Assembly: GCA_964535955.1 (NCBI GenBank)
Contig: CAZHVK010000004.1
Location: 128,636 to 148,635, forward strand
Source of the DNA: an uncultured Methanosarcinales archaeon
Lineage (GTDB): Archaea > Nanobdellota > Nanobdellia > Woesearchaeales > CAXGTL01
Length of the DNA: 20,000 nt
Direction of reading: 5' to 3'
In this document: in pieces, positions 1 through 20,000 of the stretch
Layout: every line of letters starts with the position of its first letter
Numbering within the stretch: position 1 is the first letter of the stretch
Program-made: the position numbers and the translations under genes
Notes under the pieces: model-generated
Told to the model about the DNA's origin: nothing
Seen by the model: only the letters and a program-made list of their open reading frames with translations
Databases searched by the model: none

Positions 1-6
1 TATCAT

Positions 7-1016
7 TTAACCACTACATAAACTTATACTGTTCAAGATATTCTTTTAAACAGAATTTACAGATTGCCTCTACTTTACCTTTTCTTGAATTTTCTAAAGC
101 TTCTAGGTAGTCTGTTCTTTTTCTTACATGTATTGCTAATGGAGCAAGTTTCTTGTACATCAAAAGCCAACAAAGAACCAATCTCCCCACCCTTCCATTA
201 CCATCAACAAAAGGGTGTATTATCTCAAATTGTGCATGTGATTGAAAAGCAACCTCAAAATCATTTATTTTCTTAAAACCTTGTTTTATCCATCTTAACA
301 ATGTTTCCATCCTTTCTTTGATAAATAAATAAGAGGAAGTATAAACATCGCCTACATAATTCTGAACTTTTTTGTATTTGCCTAATGTTTCATCAGATTC
401 AATATCTTTGTTTACTAGTTTGTGAAGTTCAAACAGATCTTTGTGCTTAGGTAATCTCTTATGATTAGCTTCAACATAGTTCCATGCTTTTAACAGATTA
501 TCTGCCATATGGAGTTCTTTTTTCTTATGACCTTTTGGAACAGTATCTTTGAATAAGTAATTGAATGTTTCTTTGACTGTCAAGGTAGAACCTTCTATTG
601 CATTGCTGTTTGATATGAATATACTTAAGAATTTCTCTTTTTCTTTTTGTTTTGACACTTTGTCTAATTCTTTTATATATCTCTTGTATGTGTCTGAAGC
701 TTTTTTTAGTCTATTATGGTCTTGGTAAGATAAAGTATCTTTGTATTCTTTAAGTATCCAGTCTTGTTTACTGTATGAGTATTTCATACATTCAAACTCA
801 TCTTTGGTTATTGGTCTCTTTTTTCCAATATATTTTATAGTCTTTTGTATTACTTTGTTTTTTTTTCTTATACTATGTACTAGATAAAGATATTCATTTC
901 CATTGATCTTCTTTGTTACTATGCTTACCATGAAAGATATTAACCACTACATATATTTAAATCTTTCGTCATAAAATATAAAATAATAAGAAATGCAGAT
1001 GAATTTAACCACTACA
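7..1016. repeat. Three direct copies of TTAACCACTACA (7-18, 940-951, 1005-1016)
   Basis: Exact 12-mer seen three times. Copies at 7-20 and 940-953 match over 14 nt and flank the Fic gene. Confidence 0.85.
14..931 (-). CDS. Fic family protein (class II, AMPylase) with N-terminal basic beta-rich putative DNA-binding domain
   Basis: Canonical Fic motif HPFVDGNGRVGR. Inhibitory-helix motif SNAIEG lies N-terminal to it. TTTAAATA box about 22 nt upstream of the ATG. Confidence 0.93.
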   Translation of the reverse strand: MVSIVTKKINGNEYLYLVHSIRKKNKVIQKTIKYIGKKRPITKDEFECMKYSYSKQDWILKEYKDTLSYQDHNRLKKASDTYKRYIKELDKVSKQKEKEKFLSIFISNSNAIEGSTLTVKETFNYLFKDTVPKGHKKKELHMADNLLKAWNYVEANHKRLPKHKDLFELHKLVNKDIESDETLGKYKKVQNYVGDVYTSSYLFIKERMETLLRWIKQGFKKINDFEVAFQSHAQFEIIHPFVDGNGRVGRLVLCWLLMYKKLAPLAIHVRKRTDYLEALENSRKGKVEAICKFCLKEYLEQYKFM

Positions 1017-1024
1017 GTTCAATA

Positions 1025-1053
1025 TTTACCTAGCCCTTACCATATGAAACACT
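1025..1053. repeat. Repeat B copy 1; remnant of the 3' end of the 48-aa gene at 2834-2980
   Basis: TTTACCTAGCCCTTACCATATGAAACACT matches 2833-2861 at 27/29 nt. Confidence 0.9.
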
Positions 1054-1060
1054 ATTCACC

Positions 1061-1720
1061 TTATATCAATCTACTCCTATTGATAAACAATTCAAATTTA
1101 CAACCAAGTGAACTTGCAGCTCTTTTGCAAGCAATCATTCTTTCTAGAAAAATCTCAAAATATTCCATGACTGAAGCTATTTTTTTATCAGTAGTTAAGC
1201 TTAGCCTGATTGTTTTCTTTTTCTTATTAACACTTAGTTTTGAGGATTTAGTAGCATAATTAACCCTGTCATGGATGTCAAGATCCATTGTTTTTACATT
1301 CCTAACCCTGGACCTTCTAACATCTGATTTATCAGCAATGATCACAGCTGCTCCTAAAGCATTAACAGGATCACCTTGTGTTTCATGATGATTTCCAATT
1401 GCTGTTGTTATTCTTATTAGCTCTTCTACTCCAATATCTCTATGAAATATTGAATAAACAATTAAAGCAGATGATTGAGCATGTTGGTGTCTGCTAACAA
1501 TATTGCCTATATCATGAAGATATCCTGCAATTGCTGCTAGTTCAGCACCTTGTTTTGAATAATTAAGTTTTAGTAATATATCCTGTGCTCTTTTTGACAC
1601 TATTTCAGCATGTTTAAATCCATGCTCTGTTATACCTACTTTTCCCATGTATTTATCGCTCTTTGTAAGAAGCATCTTTACTTCAGGAATCTTTTTTATT
1701 TCATTTAATGTTAGTTTCAT
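1061..1720 (-). CDS. HD-domain metal-dependent phosphohydrolase
   Basis: Motifs EH...H, GYLHDIG, NHHE and ADKSD. AGGTGA RBS before the ATG. Confidence 0.9.
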   Translation of the reverse strand: MKLTLNEIKKIPEVKMLLTKSDKYMGKVGITEHGFKHAEIVSKRAQDILLKLNYSKQGAELAAIAGYLHDIGNIVSRHQHAQSSALIVYSIFHRDIGVEELIRITTAIGNHHETQGDPVNALGAAVIIADKSDVRRSRVRNVKTMDLDIHDRVNYATKSSKLSVNKKKKTIRLSLTTDKKIASVMEYFEIFLERMIACKRAASSLGCKFELFINRSRLI

Positions 1721-1783
1721 TTTGTATCACCTTTTTATGTATTTATGTTTATAGAATTTATAAGAGTTTTGGTTTATTCTAAT
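1712..1783 (-). promoter_or_regulatory. Repeat C copy 1: intergenic scaffold (stop codon, TATA, RBS, ATG AAA CTA)
   Basis: Homologous to 3413-3484. Core 1753-1783 versus 3454-3484 matches at 29/31 nt. Confidence 0.85.
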
Positions 1784-2238
1784 TTTTCTAATATCTTTTT
1801 CTTAAGTAGATTAATGTAAACATTTAATTGCAATTCTATTTCTTTAAAATCATTATAACTAACTGGCTGGCCATAATAATTGATCCCATTTCTTTTTGTT
1901 CTAATTTTCTCAAAGAATTCCCAGCTTAATTCTAGTTCTGGATGTTTTATGCATAAGTATGCAAACAAACATTGGTGGTTCAGAGATTTTATTTTATCAA
2001 ATCTTATGAAAGCTTCTACAAGTTGTCTCAACACATCATAATAATTTCTAAAGATTATACTCCATCCATAACTCTCTTTAGGAGTCTTTTTAATTAATTG
2101 TTGTATTACTTCAAGACCTGCCACCGAGATATTTAACATAGTTTTAATTTTATCTAAATCAATTTTCTCCATAAATATAAACATGCCATTTTGTTCGCAT
2201 TTATTAAATATTTCCTCTTTAGTTTTTTCTTTAGGCAT
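1774..2238 (-). CDS. HEPN-domain protein (putative toxin of the MNT-HEPN pair)
   Basis: Helical protein with YY..LR...EA, NH and RNGINY (R-x4-Y variant of R-x4-H). Overlaps the MNT gene by 8 nt. Confidence 0.75.
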   Translation of the reverse strand: MPKEKTKEEIFNKCEQNGMFIFMEKIDLDKIKTMLNISVAGLEVIQQLIKKTPKESYGWSIIFRNYYDVLRQLVEAFIRFDKIKSLNHQCLFAYLCIKHPELELSWEFFEKIRTKRNGINYYGQPVSYNDFKEIELQLNVYINLLKKKILEKLE

Positions 2239-2779
2239 TTAATTTCACCTCGAAGAAATTTATCTCACCTTTAACAAGATGACCTTCTATAATGTTTCCT
2301 ATTAATCCAGGACCCATCTTCTTTAAATCTCTTTTATTTTTTGCAGTAAATAACTGTATCTCTCTATGCAGTTTTAATTCATATTTCCCTAACTCAAAAT
2401 CATCATCATCACCATATATAAACAAATCAATATCACTTTCTTTGTACCAGTCTGATCTTGCCATACTTCCGAATATAATAACAGTTTTTGCTTTTTTTAG
2501 TGATAGTAGATGGTTTAGAAAACCTGTTTTATAGAATTGCTGTAATGTGAAGAGTTTTTTTCTATTTCTGTATGAGGGGTGTTCATAATTGCTAATATAA
2601 TAAGGCATTTTTCCTTTTTCTTTAATTCTTTTTATTATATTTTCTTTTATTAATCTTTTTAACCAATTATTTGTTTTATCTCTACTTACCTTACTTTGCT
2701 TTAATATATCTTTAAAATACCAATATTTGGTAGGTTGGTTAAAGAATAGTTCTAGTATTTGGTATTCTTTACTTCTCAT
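2231..2779 (-). CDS. Winged-HTH + minimal nucleotidyltransferase (MNT) antitoxin
   Basis: IIFGSMARSD...SDIDLFI is the Pol-beta NTase signature. The N-terminus resembles a wHTH domain. Confidence 0.88.
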   Translation of the reverse strand: MRSKEYQILELFFNQPTKYWYFKDILKQSKVSRDKTNNWLKRLIKENIIKRIKEKGKMPYYISNYEHPSYRNRKKLFTLQQFYKTGFLNHLLSLKKAKTVIIFGSMARSDWYKESDIDLFIYGDDDDFELGKYELKLHREIQLFTAKNKRDLKKMGPGLIGNIIEGHLVKGEINFFEVKLNA

Positions 2780-2781
2780 AT

Positions 2782-2802
2782 TAGTACCTATAATAGGGAC
2801 TA
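2782..2802. promoter_or_regulatory. Palindromic operator between the TATA box and the MNT start
   Basis: TAGTACCTA-TAA-TAGGGACTA is an inverted repeat with one mismatch, next to a minus-strand TTTAAATA box. Confidence 0.65.
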
Positions 2803-2832
2803 TTATTTAAATCTTTTGGTTTTGTGGTTAGC

Positions 2833-2861
2833 TTTACCTAGCCCTTACTCTATGAAACACT
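2833..2861. repeat. Repeat B copy 2
   Basis: 27/29 identity with 1025-1053. Confidence 0.9.
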
Positions 2862-2980
2862 GGTTTCTTTCTTTTTGTATGTTGCCAGCATCTTTTCTTG
2901 AAAGTTCTTCTGTCACATTTTCCATATTTTTTATAGTTTTTGCATCTTACTCCGCACTTGTGTGCTTTTTTCTTAGCCAT
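2834..2980 (-). CDS. Small basic Cys/His protein (48 aa), possible zinc finger; not in the ORF track
   Basis: Manual translation MAKKKAHKCGVRCKNYKKYGKCDRRTFKKRCWQHTKRKKPVFHRVRAR*. GAGGTGA RBS 6 nt upstream, directly after the lipoprotein stop. Confidence 0.75.
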   Translation of the reverse strand: MAKKKAHKCGVRCKNYKKYGKCDRRTFKKRCWQHTKRKKPVFHRVRAR

Positions 2981-2995
2981 GATTATTCACCTCTT

Positions 2996-3421
2996 TTATT
3001 CACATAATGAACATAATTCTTCAGTCATTGGTTCTTCATGTCTACAATAACTTTCAAAACCTTTTTCACAAAACTCTTCAACTGTTTTGAAGTTTGATTT
3101 ATCTTTACCTATACAATCTTCACAATTACAAGGATTTTCTTGTTCTTCACATACACCATTGCCACAGTTAATACAAGTACCTACTGGATAACCAGACATT
3201 AGTCCTGTGTCATAACACTTATCTGCAACAGATATACTAGTATCATGTCCAGACTCCCATTCAGTCAATCCTTCACAGCATGTTTCAGGATGTTCTTCTT
3301 TGTATACAACTGAGAATCTTTCACCTTCTTGTGCACAGTCTGCTGTTATTATTCCAGCTGGTCTTGTACAACCACTCAGAACTAATATTGATATTATTGT
3401 TAGTATTATTAATAGTTTCAT
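2996..3421 (-). CDS. Cys-rich acidic lipoprotein, hypothetical
   Basis: Start MKLLII after a GAGGTGA RBS. Hydrophobic signal with LSGC lipobox. CGNGVC...CNCEDC repeat-like motif. Confidence 0.8.
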   Translation of the reverse strand: MKLLIILTIISILVLSGCTRPAGIITADCAQEGERFSVVYKEEHPETCCEGLTEWESGHDTSISVADKCYDTGLMSGYPVGTCINCGNGVCEEQENPCNCEDCIGKDKSNFKTVEEFCEKGFESYCRHEEPMTEELCSLCE

Positions 3422-3484
3422 AAGTATCACCTCTTTACACTATTTATATCAACAGAATTTATAAAAGCTTTGGTTTATTCTAAT
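3413..3484 (-). promoter_or_regulatory. Repeat C copy 2
   Basis: Same 72-nt span as 1712-1783, from the ...LE* of the upstream gene to the MKL of the downstream gene. Confidence 0.85.
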
Positions 3485-4299
3485 CTTTTTTTCTTTTCAG
3501 GCTCTTTTAAATAATTTTCATCAGAAACAATTGTTTTGCCTAACCTTTTTTCAATATCTTTTCTAGTTGCACCTGCAACATCACCACCATCTTTTGCATC
3601 TTTTTTCAAACTAGGAAATTTTTCAGAATCTTTCTCTTTAGTAAACTTTGTAGTAGTTGCTTCACCAAGCATAGTAAGAACTAATTCCATGTCATCCATA
3701 TGATCTCTTAGGTTATGATGTTTTAAACCTTTAAAGTTTTTATATTCAGATGGAGTCATATTAAAAGTTGCTTTGCTGATTTCTGCTGTTAATATTGAAA
3801 AATCATTTGGCTTTTTTACTCCTCTGTTTCTCCATTCATCTGTTAATTCATCTCTTATTGCAATTCCTCTCACTCTTTTCTCTATCCATTGATCAGAATA
3901 TCCTTTTAATTTGTATAATGTTTTCATACGTTTTTGTGCTAATTCAGGATTTTCTATTTCTTGTACTCTTTCATAACCAACCTTAGCAAGCCACCTTTTG
4001 AATGGTTCTGCTTTTTTAGACGGTATTGATTGAACTAATCTAAAAGCACCCCTTGTAGAAACACAATTAAGCTTCTGCATGCCTCCTGATGTTTTTATAG
4101 GAAGGGGGGTGGCAATTTGCACCCACCCTTGTGAAAAGCCTTCATCTCTCCTTCTCATATCTTTTAAATAACCAGAAGGATTAACACTATCTGTTAAAAC
4201 TGCAATAATATCAACAGCAACAAACCACCATTCATCATTAAACCAAGTTCTTCTAATCTTATTTCCTTGAAATATAACTAATGCTTTATCTTGATCCAT
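3475..4299 (-). CDS. BRO-N domain protein (phage antirepressor-like / DinD-like C-terminus)
   Basis: IRRTW..EWWF...DIIAVLTDS, RLVQSIPSKKAEPFKRWLAKVG and NLRDHM motifs. Confidence 0.88.
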   Translation of the reverse strand: MDQDKALVIFQGNKIRRTWFNDEWWFVAVDIIAVLTDSVNPSGYLKDMRRRDEGFSQGWVQIATPLPIKTSGGMQKLNCVSTRGAFRLVQSIPSKKAEPFKRWLAKVGYERVQEIENPELAQKRMKTLYKLKGYSDQWIEKRVRGIAIRDELTDEWRNRGVKKPNDFSILTAEISKATFNMTPSEYKNFKGLKHHNLRDHMDDMELVLTMLGEATTTKFTKEKDSEKFPSLKKDAKDGGDVAGATRKDIEKRLGKTIVSDENYLKEPEKKKRLE

Positions 4300-4314
4300 T
4301 TAAACCACCTTGTA

Positions 4315-4465
4315 TATATAGAAAGTACTTCTCCTTTATAAATCTCACGCGCATCTGACCAGTGACCAGTGAGAACCTTCTAAGAAGCTGTATTGCTAGG
4401 ATTAAAGTGTCTAAGGTCAGTGGACATGTGTTTTTGAGATGTCTAGTGAGAAATGTTTAGAAGCT
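4315..4465 (-). promoter_or_regulatory. Repeat D copy 1: promoter region with multiple TG(A/T)CCA(G/C)TGA boxes
   Basis: Tandem TGACCAG-TGACCAG-TGA at 4356-4372, inverted copy GTCAGTGGACA at 4416-4426 and degenerate copy near 4440. Homologous to 17584-17670. Confidence 0.75.
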
Positions 4466-4470
4466 TTGCT

Positions 4471-4851
4471 TTATAACAAATACCTATCCAATGTATGACA
4501 TTTTCTTATTAAACACTTCATCACTATTGGATCATTCTCAAGTTCTTGTCTTGTATCTTTGGTAGCAAGGTCAACAACTGCACTATATACTGGTTCCTTT
4601 CCTTGTGAGCCAAAAGGAATTCCTCTAGAATCAACATAATCTTGTTCTGCATCTAATAATGTTTGCATTGCTACAGCTTCTTCTTGTCCTGACTTGTTAC
4701 CTAAGATAATGTTTCTTGTTGTTAAATATTCTAGCATTTTTATTGCATCATATGCTCTTTTTAGTATTTCATCTGTTTTAATTAAATCTCTTAATGTTGT
4801 TACATCTTCTGGTTTGTCTAGGTTAAAGGTTTGCATTTTGTATTTTATCAC
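4471..4851 (-). CDS. Hypothetical protein
   Basis: 126-aa ORF with normal soluble-protein composition. The start may be the ATG at 4836. No recognised motif. Confidence 0.6.
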   Translation of the reverse strand: MIKYKMQTFNLDKPEDVTTLRDLIKTDEILKRAYDAIKMLEYLTTRNIILGNKSGQEEAVAMQTLLDAEQDYVDSRGIPFGSQGKEPVYSAVVDLATKDTRQELENDPIVMKCLIRKCHTLDRYLL

Positions 4852-4967
4852 AAATCTATCATTTTACATTAGTCTATCAGAATGTCTTTTTTTAGTATTT
4901 GGAGTGGAAGGAAGTATTTAAAGGTTTTGTCCTAATCTTTATATACTTCCATACCTTCCCCTTTATC

Positions 4968-5492
4968 ATGAACCTAGAAATCATAAACAAAGACATAACA
5001 ACCTTAGATGTAGATGCAATTGTGAATGCAGCAAACTCAGGATTATTAGGTGGTGGAGGAGTAGATGGAGCAATACACAGAGCAGCAGGACCAAATCTTA
5101 TTGCAGAGTGCAAAGAGATAAGAGAAAAAACCTATCCAGAAGGATTACCAACAGGACAAGCTGTGATAACAAAAGGATATGATCTCAAAGCAAGACATGT
5201 TATTCACACAGTTGGTCCTGTTTATGGTAAAGGTAAATTGCCATCTAAATTACTTGCAGATGCTTACATCAACTCATTAAATCTTGCAGAACAACATAAT
5301 CTAAAGTCAATAGCATTTCCTGCTATAAGCACAGGAATATTCAGTTATCCAAAGAGAGAAGCTGTTAGAGTAGTAAAGGAAGTTATGGAAGAATATGATT
5401 TCAAATCCTTGGAAAGAGTAATACTTTGTTTCTATTCTAAAGAAGATATGGAGATTGCAGTGGGAGTGTTTAAGGAAGAGGGTATGTGTTGA
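4968..5492 (+). CDS. MacroD/YmdB-type macrodomain (O-acetyl-ADP-ribose deacetylase / ADP-ribosylhydrolase)
   Basis: DIT..DVDAIVNAANSGLLGGGGVDGAIHRAAG, VIHTVGP and AFPAISTGIFSYP. TTTATATA at 4938-4945 supports a leaderless start at 4968. Confidence 0.95.
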   Translation: MNLEIINKDITTLDVDAIVNAANSGLLGGGGVDGAIHRAAGPNLIAECKEIREKTYPEGLPTGQAVITKGYDLKARHVIHTVGPVYGKGKLPSKLLADAYINSLNLAEQHNLKSIAFPAISTGIFSYPKREAVRVVKEVMEEYDFKSLERVILCFYSKEDMEIAVGVFKEEGMC

Positions 5493-5533
5493 GGTTGTGT
5501 AAGTGGGTATTGAAGGGTTTTGTGAATATTTTA

Positions 5534-8032
5534 TTACAATTCTTCTCTTTTGATAAAATCCTTTATTTCAGTTACAAACTTACTTTCAGAACCTTTCTGA
5601 GTATACATAATAACTTCTTCTTTTGCTCTTGTTACAGCAACATAGAATAATCTTCTTTCTTCTTCTTCCCTTAATCCATCATTGTTTTCAATTGCAGGCA
5701 TAAATATATCTGGATTTTCTAGTTCACAAGGGAAACCATATAGTCCTTTATCAACATTTAAAACAATGACTACTTTTGCCTGTAATCCTTTGCTTCTATG
5801 AACTGACATAAACTTAACACGGTTAGGCACTTCCTTATGTGATTCAGTTATAATTGGAATTCTTAACTTTTTAGCATAATCAATAATAAATCTCCAGATC
5901 ATTTTATTTTCACTAGCAATCCTCATTAAAACTAAAAAATCATCATATGAACACCCTTTTTTATGCATTTCATTAATTTTTTCTAAACAATTTTTTGCGA
6001 TTTGTTCATAATATTTTAAATATTGATATTTATTAGAAGAATAAACCATAATTGGTCTTTCAGTTTCCTTCAGTTTAGGATTGCCGGGTATTGTTTTTTT
6101 TAATATTTGTCCTTTGTTATGTTTAATTATGTGTGCTCCTACATTCACAACTGATTTTATACTTCTATAATTTTTTGTTAAGTCAGTTCTTACTGGATGT
6201 GGGAAGTATTTTTTGAAATTTATAAAATAATCCAGATTAGATCCTGCAAAACCCATAATACTTTGCCAGTCATCACCAACACAGAATAATTTACATTTAG
6301 AATTCTTATTCATTAATTCATTAATTAGTTCATATCTTTGTGCACTGATATCCTGAAATTCATCTACAAGTATATGATCATATTCATTATTATATAACTT
6401 TTTATATTTTCTTAAATAATCTACTGCTTTGTTTATCATGTCTGAGAAATCAATATAATTATTCTTTTCAAGACCTTTTTGGTATTTATTATATATTGTA
6501 TTTGCAATCTTTGCAAATGCTATTTGTTTTTTTGACCATTTTTCATTTTTTAATCTTTTTTCTATATCTTGAGGATATAATCTATATGTTTTTGCAATGA
6601 CAACAAATCTGGAAATGTTCATTGAGATTTTCTTTACAAACTCTTTACAATCGTTCCAAACACGTTTAACTAATTCTTCATAAGATATATTTTCTAAATT
6701 AAATTCTTCATTAGGTTTTGTCTGTTTTAAAGCAGTGATAAACCTTTCTTTTAATATTTCATGAAAATTTCCATTTTCATAGTCTGCTTGAGAGGTTTCA
6801 AATAGTGTTTTTTCATTTAATTTATATTTTTCTTTTTTAATATTCATATTTTTAGTATATTCTTTAGTAGGATTGTCTCCAGAAAACCATTCAGGAACTT
6901 TTCCATTCTTTCCTATTGCCCAATGTTCAAGATAGAGATCATATTCAGGAAAATAAAAATCAGGTTTTGGGATATAATCTGTACCATCTTCTTTTTTGTA
7001 TTTCATCCAATTAGCAGGATTTTCATATATTATCTTGATTCTTTTACCATTTAAATTATGTATTATAAAGAAATTCATAATTTTCCTTTCAGCTTCACTT
7101 TTTACTTTTGTTCCATCTAAAGCAGTATATGTTAGGTTTCTTTGATACTTATAGAATTCTTCTTTTTTCTTAAAATCTGTTTTCTCTTTTATAACTTCAT
7201 CATCTTCAAAGTGCTTCATAAAATTTACAATTGTGTTTTGGAATGTCTTATTTTTAGCTGATTCTTTATTGAATAATGATTGGATATATATTTGGTATTT
7301 TCTATCTGTTTCATATTCTAATTTAGGAGCTTTAAGTCCTTTAATTTTAGAAGTATCTTTGAGTATTTTATTGCCTAAAGAATGGAATGTTCTTATTTCT
7401 ACATCTATATTGTATCTTTTCTTTAATCTTTCTTTCATTTCATTAGCAGCTTTTGTCTGAAAAGCTAAAGCTAAAATTCTTTTTGGTCTAATGTCATCTT
7501 TTCTTTTTATAAGATAAGCAATCCTCGTAATCAGAACTTCTGTTTTTCCAGATCCTGCTCCTGCAACAACTAAATTATGTTTGTCATCAGTTATTATTGC
7601 TGTCTGTTGGTCATCATCTAGTGTTAAATCATGTTTTTTGAATAAATCCTTGTATTTTATTTTCCTTTGTATTATAAAATTTAGATTATATATTAATATT
7701 TTTCCTTCATAGTCTCTTAACTGTTCTAAATTAAATTGTAGATTGGATTTTAATTTTGAATTCCAAAAGAAATACCAAGGAATCTTTGTTTTGTTTTGGC
7801 CTTTTCTCACTAAATCCTGGAAATCTATTTTATCATCATATATTAGATAAGTGTCTTTCTTTAGGAATTTCTTCCATTCGGTTTCAAATAATTTTATTGC
7901 ATTCTTAGAATTTTTTAATATTTCATGTTCTTTTTTTCTTAGAAATCCTGTTCCATTAAAATATGGAAGAAAAAATCCCATGATAATTAGGAGAATCATG
8001 CTCATTGTGAATATGATTATTCCAGTTATCAT
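5534..8032 (-). CDS. UvrD/helicase IV-like SF1 helicase with N-terminal TM helix and inserted PD-(D/E)XK-like domain
   Basis: Walker A AGAGSGKT, LVDEFQD, VGDDWQSI, NYRS, SVHRSKGL and EERRLFYVAVTRAK. Insert KSEAE...YE...PDFYFPEYDLYLEHW. Probable start at 8032 downstream of a TATA box. Confidence 0.92.
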   Translation of the reverse strand: MITGIIIFTMSMILLIIMGFFLPYFNGTGFLRKKEHEILKNSKNAIKLFETEWKKFLKKDTYLIYDDKIDFQDLVRKGQNKTKIPWYFFWNSKLKSNLQFNLEQLRDYEGKILIYNLNFIIQRKIKYKDLFKKHDLTLDDDQQTAIITDDKHNLVVAGAGSGKTEVLITRIAYLIKRKDDIRPKRILALAFQTKAANEMKERLKKRYNIDVEIRTFHSLGNKILKDTSKIKGLKAPKLEYETDRKYQIYIQSLFNKESAKNKTFQNTIVNFMKHFEDDEVIKEKTDFKKKEEFYKYQRNLTYTALDGTKVKSEAERKIMNFFIIHNLNGKRIKIIYENPANWMKYKKEDGTDYIPKPDFYFPEYDLYLEHWAIGKNGKVPEWFSGDNPTKEYTKNMNIKKEKYKLNEKTLFETSQADYENGNFHEILKERFITALKQTKPNEEFNLENISYEELVKRVWNDCKEFVKKISMNISRFVVIAKTYRLYPQDIEKRLKNEKWSKKQIAFAKIANTIYNKYQKGLEKNNYIDFSDMINKAVDYLRKYKKLYNNEYDHILVDEFQDISAQRYELINELMNKNSKCKLFCVGDDWQSIMGFAGSNLDYFINFKKYFPHPVRTDLTKNYRSIKSVVNVGAHIIKHNKGQILKKTIPGNPKLKETERPIMVYSSNKYQYLKYYEQIAKNCLEKINEMHKKGCSYDDFLVLMRIASENKMIWRFIIDYAKKLRIPIITESHKEVPNRVKFMSVHRSKGLQAKVVIVLNVDKGLYGFPCELENPDIFMPAIENNDGLREEEERRLFYVAVTRAKEEVIMYTQKGSESKFVTEIKDFIKREEL

Positions 8033-8325: not shown

Positions 8326-8619
8326 TTAATATCTTCTTTTCTTAGATTTATGCTGCCTTTTCCTTCGCTTTATGAATTTTCTGCCTCTTTTATTTTTCCT
8401 GTAAACTCTCTCACCATAATCCCTTACTTTATCCTCTTCTGGAATTTCATTGGGTTTGGGCGGCACATATCCTAATTGTTTAAGTGCTTCATTCACTACT
8501 TTAGTAATGCTTAAATTATTATTTAATATAAACTTATTTTGACTTGGAGCCAATCTTATATTAACTCTTATGCTCTTTCTTTCTTGTGTATTTGTGTTTT
8601 GAACCTTTTGTATATCCAT
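8326..8619 (-). CDS. RHH/CcdA-like DNA-binding protein with Arg/Lys-rich tail (paralog 1)
   Basis: RVNIRLAPSQNKFILNNNLSITKVVNEALKQLG gives a strand-helix-helix pattern. GAGGTGA RBS before the ATG at 8619. Paralog at 10576-10887. Confidence 0.72.
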   Translation of the reverse strand: MDIQKVQNTNTQERKSIRVNIRLAPSQNKFILNNNLSITKVVNEALKQLGYVPPKPNEIPEEDKVRDYGERVYRKNKRGRKFIKRRKRQHKSKKRRY

Positions 8620-8641
8620 TGTATTCACCTCATACTTACAG

Positions 8642-8708
8642 TGTACGTACAAGTATATAAATATTTCGGTGTTTGAGTCTATAATTGGATGAGAATAGAG
8701 AATTACAA
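8642..8708 (-). promoter_or_regulatory. Repeat E copy 1: TGTACGTACA palindrome + TATA/BRE + conserved upstream block
   Basis: Perfect palindrome at 8642-8651. 8654-8708 matches 10973-11027 at 48/55 nt. Confidence 0.88.
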
Positions 8709-8778
8709 TAATAAAATAAAATTAATCAATGTAAAAAACATAGACTTTTTATATTAGTTAACCATATCTTCTTCTAAG

Positions 8779-9468
8779 ATGATTAAAGAAATTCAAGGAA
8801 ATCTATTTGATTCAAAATGTCAAGTAATTGTAAATACTGTGAATTGTAAAGGTGTGATGGGTAAAGGTATTGCTTTAGAATTCAAGTATAGATATCCAAA
8901 GATGTATGAGAAATATGTGGTTGATTGTGAGAAAGGTACAATAAAACCAGGAGTATTGACGCTTTGGAAGGGTTCCAGACCTTGGATCTTAAATTTCCCT
9001 ACTAAATTAGATTGGAAATTTCCCTCAAGAATAGGATTCATTGAAAAGGGATTAGAATCCTTTGTGAAAAATTATAAGAAATGGAACATTAAATCTATAG
9101 CATTCCCTAAATTAGGTACACAACATGGAAAATTAGATTGGAAAGATGTGAAAAGATTGATGTATCAATATTTAGAACCACTAAATGACCTAGAAGTATA
9201 TATTTGCCATTTTGATCCTAATTCTAAAGATCTTCTTTTTGAAAAATTAAAAATAATGACTAAGAGTTTCAATCTTGATGATTATATTAGTGAAATAACA
9301 TTAACTAAATCAGCTGCAAATCTGTTATATAATTATTTAAAAGAGAAAAAAATCAAAAATATGGTTGAGTTACAAAAAATAAAAGGGTTTGGAGAGAAAT
9401 CCATTGAAAAAGTGTATGAATTCCTGAGAAATGGGAACAAATCAAAACAGACCAAGCTTAATTATTAA
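8779..9468 (+). CDS. darG: DarG-like macrodomain antitoxin (DNA ADP-ribosylglycohydrolase) with C-terminal helix-hairpin-helix
   Basis: VNTVNCKGVMGKGIALEFK, ILNFPTKLDW (catalytic Lys position) and SIAFPKLG. C-terminal LQKIKGFGEKSIEKV is HhH-like. Confidence 0.82.
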   Translation: MIKEIQGNLFDSKCQVIVNTVNCKGVMGKGIALEFKYRYPKMYEKYVVDCEKGTIKPGVLTLWKGSRPWILNFPTKLDWKFPSRIGFIEKGLESFVKNYKKWNIKSIAFPKLGTQHGKLDWKDVKRLMYQYLEPLNDLEVYICHFDPNSKDLLFEKLKIMTKSFNLDDYISEITLTKSAANLLYNYLKEKKIKNMVELQKIKGFGEKSIEKVYEFLRNGNKSKQTKLNY

Positions 9469-9477
9469 ATAAATGCA

Positions 9478-10341
9478 TTAGGGAAATTGTTTGAATGTAA
9501 ACATTCCAGAATCAACTTCTATTTTAATATTTATGTCTAATTTAGTCATAATTTCTTTTAATTTGTTTTTGATTGATTCTGTTTTGGTGATTATCTTTTT
9601 AAAGTATTTTATGTCTATTTTTGGATAGACAAGAAATTCAGAGCATAGTTTTCCTTTTATTGTCATATCATTATAATCATATATTTCTTTCTTTAATAGT
9701 TCCCAATCTAATATATCAATATCATCAAGATTTGTATAATCCTCTGCATCATTTCTAGCCATATTACCATCCGAAAAACAGAACTCCTTACTTTCATTTT
9801 CTATTATGTTTGGATTTATGACAATTATTATAGCCTTCTCCTGTTTCTTCTCAATCATCTTATAAGTCGTATGGTTTTTGGGTCTAAAATATAGTGGGAT
9901 CCTATCATGTACATCACGTCTTCTTTTTTGTACTTCAGGATTTGACATATCAACAAATGGAATCTTCCTTTGCAGAACTTCATTACGAGATAAAATGCCT
10001 AATCTTAAGATGCTTTCAATATTTCCTATTGCAACAAAATAATAAAGGGATTTCACATAAGAATAAAATTTTTCCCTTTTTTCCTTTTTTATTCTCTCTT
10101 TTTCTTTTGCCCTTTTTATTTTCTCTTCTTCTTTTCTTTTTCTTATTGCTTCTTCTCTCTTTTTCCTATTTTCCAAGTCTTTTGCTTTCTTATTCTTGAG
10201 AATGAGTTTTATCTCTTTAGTCTCAGAATCATCACAATCATTTAAGCAAAAAGGACAGTACCAATAACCTTCAATGTACAACATAGAATTCATGGCTTCA
10301 CATTTAGGACATTTAGTTGGTGATTTCTCTTCGATCTTCAT
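9478..10341 (-). CDS. darT: DarT-like (DUF4433) DNA ADP-ribosyltransferase with N-terminal Zn ribbon and charged helix
   Basis: NIESILRLGILSR, EVQKRR, IPLYFRPKN, FSDGNMA and SEFLV (catalytic Glu). CPKC...CPFC at the N-terminus. Confidence 0.85.
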   Translation of the reverse strand: MKIEEKSPTKCPKCEAMNSMLYIEGYWYCPFCLNDCDDSETKEIKLILKNKKAKDLENRKKREEAIRKRKEEEKIKRAKEKERIKKEKREKFYSYVKSLYYFVAIGNIESILRLGILSRNEVLQRKIPFVDMSNPEVQKRRRDVHDRIPLYFRPKNHTTYKMIEKKQEKAIIIVINPNIIENESKEFCFSDGNMARNDAEDYTNLDDIDILDWELLKKEIYDYNDMTIKGKLCSEFLVYPKIDIKYFKKIITKTESIKNKLKEIMTKLDINIKIEVDSGMFTFKQFP

Positions 10342-10373: not shown

Positions 10374-10598
10374 TTACCACCAACTGTCCTCTTTATGTGC
10401 TTTATGATGTGCTTTTTGATTCTTAAACACCCATAAGTTTGAAGGTTTATTATTTGATTTCCTTCTATTTATATGATGTACTCTTTCAGATCTTCTTAAA
10501 GGTCTTCCTAATTTCTTTGCAGCAGACCACCTATGTACTGATCTTCCCGAATCTGAAAATCTTCTATATCCTTTTTTATCTGTGTATGTTTTTGCCAT
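10374..10598 (-). CDS. Small HNH endonuclease (74 aa)
   Basis: VHRW.A...LGRPL...VHHINRRKSNNKPSNL...H..AH. GGAGGAG RBS. Overlaps the upstream RHH-like gene by 23 nt. Confidence 0.85.
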   Translation of the reverse strand: MAKTYTDKKGYRRFSDSGRSVHRWSAAKKLGRPLRRSERVHHINRRKSNNKPSNLWVFKNQKAHHKAHKEDSWW

Positions 10599-10887
10599 TT
10601 TTATGTCTCCTCCTATCTTTTGCATTTCTTCTTTGTCTTCTTACATTACCTTTGCCGCCTCTTCCATGACCTCTTGATTTTCTGGGGCCATATTCCTCTG
10701 CTATTTTTTTGATTTCTTTAGAATTAGGTGTTACATGACCTAACTCATCAAGTGCTTTATCAAAGATAGCTTGAACTGAAATCTCATTATCATCAATAAA
10801 TTTCATTTGTGATGGGTAAAGTCTTATATTAGCTCTACAAATTCTTCTTTCTCTTTGAGGTAAATTTTTTACATCTTCTAATTTCAT
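10576..10887 (-). CDS. RHH/CcdA-like DNA-binding protein with Arg/Gly/Lys-rich tail (paralog 2)
   Basis: RANIRLYPSQMKFIDDNEISVQAIFDKALDELG aligns without gaps to paralog 1. AGGTGA RBS before the ATG at 10887. Confidence 0.72.
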   Translation of the reverse strand: MKLEDVKNLPQRERRICRANIRLYPSQMKFIDDNEISVQAIFDKALDELGHVTPNSKEIKKIAEEYGPRKSRGHGRGGKGNVRRQRRNAKDRRRHKNGKNIHR

Positions 10888-10910
10888 ATATATCACCTTT
10901 TATGTTTTTA

Positions 10911-11027
10911 TGTACGTACAAAGAGCATACAATTGGTATGCCACTAGTATGTAATTAGTAAGTACTAACTAATATATAAACTTTTAGGTGTTTTAGTATA
11001 TAATTGGATGAGAATAAAGAATCACAA
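10911..11027 (-). promoter_or_regulatory. Repeat E copy 2, with about 50 extra nt between operator and TATA
   Basis: TGTACGTACA at 10911-10920, inverted repeat GCATAC-N5-GTATGC at 10925-10941 and conserved block at 10973-11027. Confidence 0.88.
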
Positions 11028-11096
11028 CAAGAATGAACCTACCACCATTCAAACAAAACTTGTGTTGTTATTTTTGGTATGTGGGGTTAGCTTCAA

Positions 11097-19396: not shown

Positions 19397-19437
19397 ATAG
19401 ACTAAAGAACACGCCTCAAATATATAAATCCTTTCCC

Positions 19438-19497
19438 ATATATCACAATAATTAATTATATAAACCACCTCATTCTCCAAATCCACAAAACGAGGTG
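19438..19497 (+). promoter_or_regulatory. Repeat F copy 1: promoter block followed by GAGGTG RBS
   Basis: 19438-19465 matches 19944-19971 at 27/28 nt. Confidence 0.85.
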
Positions 19498-19940: not shown

Positions 19941-19943
19941 CCA

Positions 19944-20000
19944 ATATATCACAATAATTAACTATATAAACAAGCTATAATTCCAAAAACTAAAGAGGTG
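19944..20000 (+). promoter_or_regulatory. Repeat F copy 2: promoter block + RBS for a gene beyond the window
   Basis: ATATATCACAATAATTAACTATATAAAC followed by GAGGTG at 19995-20000. Confidence 0.85.

Follow-up and report, generated by a model that had tools for sequence, protein, structure and literature searches.

The window analysed here, 20,000 nt that form the last 20 kb of contig C4 of an uncultured archaeon (genome G000; 1.49 Mb, 30% G+C), carries two interleaved repeats, B and C, which recur on the minus strand around two unrelated genes, one encoding a Cys-rich lipoprotein and the other an HD-domain phosphohydrolase (HD). The explanation that we consider best, with a probability of about 0.6, is that a resident promoter was duplicated and captured an imported gene, and that modules at this spot of a defence island are turned over by recombination. 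The locus therefore looks like a case of ordinary promoter reuse, combined with gene gain and loss by general recombination, and not like a new cassette machine. On the minus strand the features follow one another in the order geneA, BRO, B1, lipoprotein, a 48-amino-acid (aa) open reading frame (ORF) whose tail is C1, MNT, HEPN-like gene, B2, HD, C2 and Fic (Table 1).

Table 1. Features of the locus in minus-strand order, followed by related sequences elsewhere on contig C4. Positions are those of the window unless prefixed by C4; RBS, ribosome-binding site; BRE, transcription factor B recognition element.
Feature	Position	Strand	Description
geneA	4471-4836	minus	orphan ORF, 121-126 aa; upstream member of the block common to G002
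B0	4449-4473	minus	decayed B copy (its first ~25 nt), immediately 3′ of the geneA stop; TATA box spoiled
BRO regulatory module	4300-4448	minus	dyad and direct repeats, then a TATA-like box
BRO-N gene	3475-4299	minus	Pfam Bro-N 3.8e-12; PADLOC PDC-S13 3.2e-107; candidate defence gene
B1	3413-3488	minus	last 4 BRO codons and stop, BRE/TATA-like core, RBS AGGTGATAC, ATG, two lipoprotein codons
Cys-rich lipoprotein (cargo 1)	2996-3421	minus	signal peptide and ..LSGC lipobox-like motif, read from the translation
48-aa basic Cys-rich gene	2834-2980	minus	RBS GGTGAATA at 2985-2992
C1	2833-2861	minus	last 9 codons and stop of the 48-aa gene
MNT nucleotidyltransferase	2231-2779	minus	Pfam NTP_transf_2/Polbeta; PADLOC PDC-M05A 3.3e-15
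HEPN-like gene	1774-2238	minus	overlaps MNT; the pair (1774-2779) has its own TATA box
B2	1712-1787	minus	last 4 HEPN codons and stop, BRE/TATA-like core, RBS, ATG, two HD codons
HD phosphohydrolase (cargo 2)	1061-1720	minus	Pfam HD 2.5e-7
Tract identical in G000 and G002 (543 nt)	1194-1736	minus	3′ part of B2 and first ~175 HD codons
C2	1025-1060	minus	GGTGAATA and the 9-codon tail of the 48-aa gene, stop included
Fic gene	14-931	minus	PADLOC SoFic/PDC-S04; own promoter
C3	C4:128481-128519	minus	QHTKKQFHRVRAKK*, relic of the small gene; just past the window, 3′ of Fic
Fourth small-gene fragment	C4:126440-126472	minus	CWQHIKRNK
B3	C4:120670-120703	minus	third B copy, 29 nt 5′ of the ATG of a DUF4190-like membrane-protein gene

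A promoter-like repeat in front of unrelated genes

A preliminary description of this DNA, made from its letters, had reported a unit that occurs twice on the minus strand around two unrelated cargo genes, and our comparisons bear this out: B1 and B2 are identical at 67 of 84 aligned positions with two gaps, C1 and C2 agree at 27 of 29 (genome-wide E 1e-5), both agreements being far greater than chance would give in the 1.49-Mb genome, and the repeats are bridged by contigs of independent sequencing runs. Compared against the whole genome, B gave a match of 82% over 76 nt (E 1.5e-13), and a fuzzy search with a 36-nt core of B recovered three copies (0, 4, and 6 mismatches), the next-best matches having 9 mismatches. 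All three copies are on the minus strand of C4 inside 12 kb. The third, B3, stands 10 kb away from the locus, and its gene is unrelated to the other cargos. Indeed, the genes found 3′ of B, which are those for the lipoprotein, HD, the DUF4190-like protein and, in the sister species G002, the small 48-aa protein, are mutually unrelated.

The B pattern, with at most 2 mismatches allowed, is present in 2 of 401 genomes of the order, namely G000 (three copies) and G002 of the same genus (two copies), with no match in the remaining 399; scans of metagenome and viral contig collections with the B-core pattern gave 0 matches. The preliminary description had proposed such a search of the genome and its relatives for B and C, and had allowed that two copies might be all there are and relatives show a fixed gene order, or that the repeats might be assembly artefacts. 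The search returned B, with unrelated genes downstream, three times in G000 and twice in G002, as well as further relics of the small gene; there are more than two B copies, the gene content of G002 differs, and the repeats are bridged by contigs.

We read B as a lineage-specific archaeal core promoter with a short leader and an RBS, a prediction from sequence that is made because of its TATA-like box, its RBS, the leaderless geometry of B3, and the 24 of 36 core positions that are invariant across the five B copies (three in G000 and two in G002). All five contain the invariant stretch TTATAAAT, preceded by AAA(C/G)CA. The RBS AGGTGATAC lies ~30 nt 3′ of the TATA-like box and is followed by the ATG, whilst in B3 the distance from the start of the TATA-like box to the ATG itself is 29 nt, the geometry expected of leaderless archaeal mRNAs. 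In an archaeal core promoter the TATA box stands about 25-30 nt 5′ of the transcription start. For both the lipoprotein and the HD gene, the BRE/TATA-like and RBS elements of B are the sole upstream region. The TATA-binding protein (TBP) is encoded in the G000 genome; among the control genomes, the archaeal ones alone were matched in the TBP search.

Highly similar promoters before unrelated genes have been described as “putative mobile promoters” (PMPs), with >4000 families across prokaryotes and unknown means of spread (Nijveen, Matus-Garcia, & van Passel, 2012; PMC3575422). At 82% over 76 nt, and with cargos that differ in Pfam content, B lies above the PMP threshold given there, which is at least 80% identity over at least 50 nt before non-paralogous genes. 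As in the PMPs of that account, similar upstream DNA stands before non-paralogous genes in one genome, is common to related species, and is tied to no known mobile element (PMC3575422). B differs in that it would comprise an archaeal core promoter and its leader, from -68 to +9, so that the PMP sampling window of -150 to -50 (PMC3575422) does not apply to it. It is moreover accompanied by relics of the gene that the promoter first served, and a sister genome shows empty and filled sites. The locus reveals no new mechanism, promoter reuse being a kind already known; that relic and that sister genome are what it adds.

The small gene, its relics and the sister species

Repeat C is the tail of a real 48-aa gene and not a recombination site. 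Between G000 and G002 the gene has accumulated 10 nt changes in 147 nt but a single aa change (R25K), which argues for purifying selection and thus for a real gene; its database matches are confined to its own cluster. C2 is the relic of a second copy of this gene, in which the RBS has been joined to the tail and the interior lost. The 8-mer GGTGAATA occurs 83 times genome-wide, counting both strands, and its placement directly before the C2 tail is therefore unlikely to be due to chance; it stands 3′ of the stop codon of both cargo genes. The relics (C2, C3, and the fourth fragment) are all on one strand and inside 5.2 kb.

In G002 the locus consists of geneA, B, small gene, B, HD and a decayed relic of the small-gene tail, without BRO, lipoprotein, MNT, or HEPN. 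Identity at the nt level between the two genomes is 87% for geneA (on C9 of G002), 90% for the small gene, 98% for the HD block, 82% for FKBP and 91% for DUF1846, and the homology on the geneA side ends at 4452. Near the G002 locus we found nothing further from the 20-kb window and, from the preceding 18 kb, two core genes only, so that the shared block stands in different surroundings in the two genomes. Since G002 carries the duplicated B as well as the relic after HD, both must either predate the species split or have passed between the species.

Part of the block has been exchanged recently. The 543-nt tract that is identical in the two genomes begins 16 nt 5′ of the HD ATG, inside B2, with no difference between 1193 and 1737. 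Past it there are 5 differences in the next 133 nt and 12 in the 35 nt after the HD stop, and the background identity is 82-91%. Given this lower background, we conclude that HD recombined recently between the species, with one end of the exchange in B.

The three differences between G000 and G002 have junctions in or beside the same elements. At the BRO difference, B0 stands on the left, after the geneA stop, and the complete B1 on the right, whilst the corresponding single, intact B of G002 (Ba) has its first bases in common with B0 and its RBS in common with B1. The lipoprotein ORF sits between AAAGAGGTGATACTTATG and AAAGAGGTGAATAATCATG, flanked by AAAGAGGTGA..ATG on both sides; in G002 a single stretch of this kind adjoins the small gene directly. 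MNT-HEPN sits between two copies of ACCAAAA (about 8 nt). The direct repeats of resident sequence thus measure ~30 nt of B for BRO and 10-18 nt of RBS-ATG for the lipoprotein. Direct repeats flanking each difference fit the insertion of circles by homologous or microhomology recombination, or the looping-out of a segment in the other genome. The earlier proposal that genes are exchanged at conserved junctions is partly supported, in that the content is not fixed, the breakpoints lie in B or in RBS-ATG, and HD has been exchanged with an end in B2; of a dedicated machinery we find none.

It had also been claimed that homology runs a few codons into the non-homologous ORFs on either side of B. 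BRO and HEPN both end in ..TTAGAATAA (LE*), as do 3 of 1150 crude ORFs, and the lipoprotein and HD both start with ATGAAACTA (MKL), as do 11 of 1150; with ends and starts this rare, pure chance is an unlikely cause of the similarity, and to this extent the claim holds. However, LE is native to both upstream genes and MKL to the HD family. BRO homologues end in KKKRLEKK*, KKKKLESKDES* and similar, so RLE is native to BRO, and HEPN homologues end in EKLKE*, KKLRD* or AKLK*, to which KLE is close. The idea of a grafted LE* tail was consequently rejected. The geneA of G002 likewise ends in LE* before its B. We read the similarity on the coding side as microhomology that was used at the junction, or as partly chance.

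HD itself has the look of an imported gene for which an archaeal promoter was required, because its family is large, the named members are bacterial, and the ORF is complete. All 8000 scored candidates had E<=1e-5, the closest match from any other cluster has 61% identity, and the matches that bear names are bacterial; the gene is complete at both ends, its homologues starting with, for example, MKITLNEIKK.

In the scheme that we favour, a unit of promoter and small gene would have been duplicated, and an imported HD of a mainly bacterial family would have been placed behind the promoter of the second copy (promoter capture), the displaced small gene then decaying to its RBS and tail. The resulting state, common to the sister species, would have been geneA, B, small gene, B, HD, and small-gene relic. 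Relative to G002, three more imports would have entered G000 at the edges of the units: BRO, which brought an operator and promoter of its own, between geneA and B; the ORF for the lipoprotein between the RBS-ATG of B and the small gene; and MNT-HEPN between the small gene and the second B. Such modules may be gained or lost via homologous or microhomology recombination, by circle insertion or segment loop-out. If so, the locus offers a fine-detail view of how imported genes may come to be expressed in an archaeon with a small genome, via a duplicated resident promoter and leader. It also shows, at repeat-bounded junctions, how the defence modules of two coexisting sister species differ, and is a clean, small example for testing promoter capture and recombination-driven island turnover in DPANN archaea.

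Several points weigh against this scheme. The orthologous copies B2 and Bb (of G002) are alike at 31 of 36 positions and so no closer than paralogous B copies (28-32 of 36), from which it follows that the duplications are old and held by selection; old, selected copies fit a shared regulated promoter as well as they fit a recombination substrate. The promoter activity of B is itself a prediction. With B in two genomes and no outgroup, insertion in G000 looks the same as deletion in G002. C2 of G000 is far closer to C1 (27/29) than to the orthologous relic of G002 (22/34, counted by hand), and this calls for a further event, be it gene conversion or rapid decay in G002. Lastly, the similarity of 9-14 nt inside the upstream ORFs is rarer than expected by chance, and junction microhomology explains it loosely.

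Coexisting populations and rival explanations

Contigs of run X1 cover 1-1106, 1077-2906 and 2877-3796 with 0 differences, so that all B and C junctions of G000 are bridged. In run X3, from another sample of the same study, a contig over 1071-2800 with 3 other letters bridges the C2-HD junction, B2, and C1, and another over 3112-3518 bridges B1 with 0 differences. Other contigs carry different joints, 2980->4464 in X1 (depth 5.8, compared with ~12 for the G000 form) and also in X7 and X8, and 1736->2833 in X7. The preliminary description had suggested looking for junction variants or excision products between the repeats; these joints carry exactly the alleles of G002, at the same depth, and hence represent a coexisting sister species and not excision products of the G000 population. 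Neither a B1 x B2 joint (a skip of ~1700 nt) nor a C1 x C2 joint (~1800 nt) was seen in the contigs of 4 runs, contigs being prone to drop rare variants. For the further joints 989->2325, 2649->5700, and 4032->4324, the sides measure at most 30 letters. A contig of X7 and X8 joins the 3′ end of a Fic-like gene (window 75), through 26 other letters, to HD from codon 5 (window 1707), and is a third arrangement, in a third coexisting organism, with HD directly after a Fic-like gene and without B. HD and Fic are also neighbours in G000, in the opposite order.

The same contigs bear on the idea that the repeats are false, having arisen as a chimera of two coexisting populations during assembly. Contigs of the G002 type do occur in the same samples, and contigs break inside the shared modules (1077-1106 and 2877-2906). 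Yet with every G000 junction bridged in X1 at 0 differences, with C2-HD, B2, C1, and B1 found again in X3, and with the G000 form at about twelvefold depth against 5.8 for the G002-type joint, such an artefact is scarcely credible. A repeat derived from a miniature inverted-repeat transposable element or an insertion sequence was considered as well and rejected, as there are no inverted-repeat arms at B or C, and only 3 copies, on one strand and within 12 kb.

One could also hold that B reflects regulation and nothing else: the copies would be alike through one shared regulated promoter, gains and losses would be unrelated, and insertions would merely survive in intergenic DNA. This would account for 24 invariant core positions next to 12 that vary freely, for orthologues that are no closer than paralogues, and for the precedent of repeat D1 elsewhere in the window, a promoter with 82% nt identity before paralogues that are 39% identical in aa. 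We consider it unlikely, since duplicated pieces of B or its RBS-ATG stand on both sides of each of the three indels, the tract identical between species starts inside B2, and the decayed B0 makes sense as a by-product of insertion but not as regulation.

Integrons comprise the integrase IntI (a tyrosine recombinase), the site attI, the promoter Pc, and cassettes with attC sites, imperfect palindromes that fold as single-stranded DNA, and the preliminary description had likened the locus to them while noting that no attC site or integrase was visible. The likeness consists of a putative resident promoter, promoterless ORFs behind it, and content that varies between relatives. In its strong form it would make the locus a dedicated platform for cassette capture, with the RBS-ATG of B as the docking site and promoterless ORFs inserted by a site-specific enzyme encoded elsewhere. 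Two unrelated complete ORFs do share one frame (B, RBS, ATGAAACTA.., stop, GGTGAATA, then the small gene or its relic), the first site is empty in G002, where the RBS-ATG of B lies directly on the small gene, and both ATGAAACTA starts (11 of 1150 ORFs) and GGTGAATA (83 times in the genome) are infrequent. However, there is no tyrosine recombinase in the window or on C4, the five PF00589 (integrase) matches being on C25, C10, C7 (two), and C6. Neither do B1, B2, C1, and C2 have hairpin potential: as DNA, six strands folded at -0.5 to -3.8 kcal/mol, with z from +0.93 to -0.97 relative to shuffled sequences. The observation that neither attC site nor integrase is visible was thus correct, and the resemblance to integrons drawn beside it fails on the defining features; C is a gene tail, and the locus has no array. 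There are just 2 cargo instances, three of the inserted modules bring their own promoters, MKL is native to the HD family, and B is confined to 2 of 401 genomes, with 0 metagenome or viral contigs. Such a platform is, in our view, highly improbable.

A recombinase-free variant would be an “expression dock” of these DPANN-type archaea, in which foreign ORFs, among them bacterial ones devoid of an archaeal promoter, are captured with codon precision by recombination at the RBS-ATG behind the resident promoter and are passed between coexisting species with the promoter and small-gene tail as homology arms; the small basic Cys-rich protein might then regulate B. We mention it as a speculation and think it quite unlikely.

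Integrative elements may accrete in tandem at the 3′ end of a target gene. The present locus is similar in that partial copies of the 3′ end of a gene lie behind the intact gene, and one could accordingly suppose that elements integrated site-specifically and in series at the 3′ end of the small gene; C1, C2, and C3 would then be att duplicates, and MNT-HEPN-HD and Fic two decayed islets. The intact small gene is followed by two partial copies of its 3′ end on the same strand, with accessory genes between them. There is, however, no integrase in or beside the islets, C2 keeps the small-gene RBS (GGTGAATA), which is not expected of an att duplicate, and C3 and the fourth fragment correspond to different portions of the gene, a pattern expected of relics that derive from whole copies. 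With ARAGORN, neither the window nor the 18-kb flank yielded a tRNA, which, as the program found just 6 tRNAs genome-wide, is weak evidence against a tRNA-derived att site. We regard serial integration as very unlikely.

Promoter capture with module turnover by general recombination remains the reading that we prefer. Defence islands gain and lose genes by recombination between flanking homology or short direct repeats, and the locus resembles such turnover in that its modules differ between coexisting relatives, one gene being nearly identical across species. What sets it apart is that the arms are a 36-75-nt promoter and an RBS-ATG stretch, as opposed to conserved core genes.

The defence island and its other modules

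The neighbourhood is a defence island that includes Fic, BRO (PDC-S13), MNT-HEPN, a UvrD-like helicase, DarT with a macro-domain gene, Mrr, Vsr, and a C5 methylase. Pfam scans of the rest of the window identified, besides the helicase, DarT, Mrr, Vsr, and the methylase, another macro-domain gene, an HNH gene, and DUF2779. In positions 1-6000, Rfam at E<=1 yielded sub-threshold chance matches only. No Pfam, PADLOC, or NCBIfam match was obtained for geneA, which falls into just 2 clusters of the protein database, and none of these family searches matched the lipoprotein. A homologue of the latter in genome G001 adjoins FKBP, has a different promoter, and starts with MKR; it appears to be split into several short ORFs (L053, G001:C61, 250-940).

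Many relatives carry these imports, which are portable modules equipped with control regions of their own. BRO homologues with 55-73% aa identity occur at loci of 7 relatives. The MNT-HEPN module is present in G026, G021, and G008 at 65-69% nt identity, and has a TATA region that matches the one in MNT-HEPN modules of other families. Portable control regions would seem to be a habit of this lineage, judging from the BRO module and the boxes of Fic. The former (~130 nt) consists of a 12-nt half-site dyad, extra copies of the half-site, and a TATA-like box, and has 7 copies in G000, at 69-86% identity and 5′ of different genes; the others are at C3:135937-136053, C25:5001-5146, C7:1556-1619, C6:4587-4703, C20:5382-5450, and C2:111224-111343. 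Read from the flanks, the genes behind these copies differ, and look KilA-N-like, integrase-like, or otherwise. The stretch is also matched in several other genera.

Fic has two GTAGTGGTTAA boxes, which are present in a distant relative as well. The sequence TGTAGTGGTTAA occurs only 4 times in the genome, at 1005-1016, 940-951, and 7-18 of the window and at C4:128598-128609 outside it; two copies are 5′ of Fic, one of them between the TATA box and the ATG, and two are 3′, one of them overlapping the Fic stop. The upstream pair, with an identical 65-nt spacing, also stands before the Fic homologue of G035, and is probably the Fic operator.

The interval between FKBP and DUF1846 is a second variable spot beside the island. 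It measures 357 nt in G002 and 7 kb in G000 (L041 7470-16421; C4:119469-128420 in G000), the extra DNA of G000 comprising B3 with the DUF4190-like gene, a DUF2268 protease-like gene, and several orphans.

Repeat D1 (72 nt, 82% identity) is found at 8643-8714 and 10962-11033, 5′ of the small paralogues at 8326-8652 and 10576-10896; the two proteins share just 39% identity, the control region being better conserved than the genes. We considered it as a second case of reuse of the kind seen with B, and rejected it as the downstream genes are paralogous. Between the two D1 copies, a macro-domain gene (8779-9468, plus strand) faces the DarT gene (9478-10341, minus strand; Pfam DarT 1.5e-38), and the two together (8779-10341) look like a DarTG-type pair in an archaeon. 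Near the contig end lies a 47-nt direct repeat with 81% identity, at 19435-19481 and 19941-19987.

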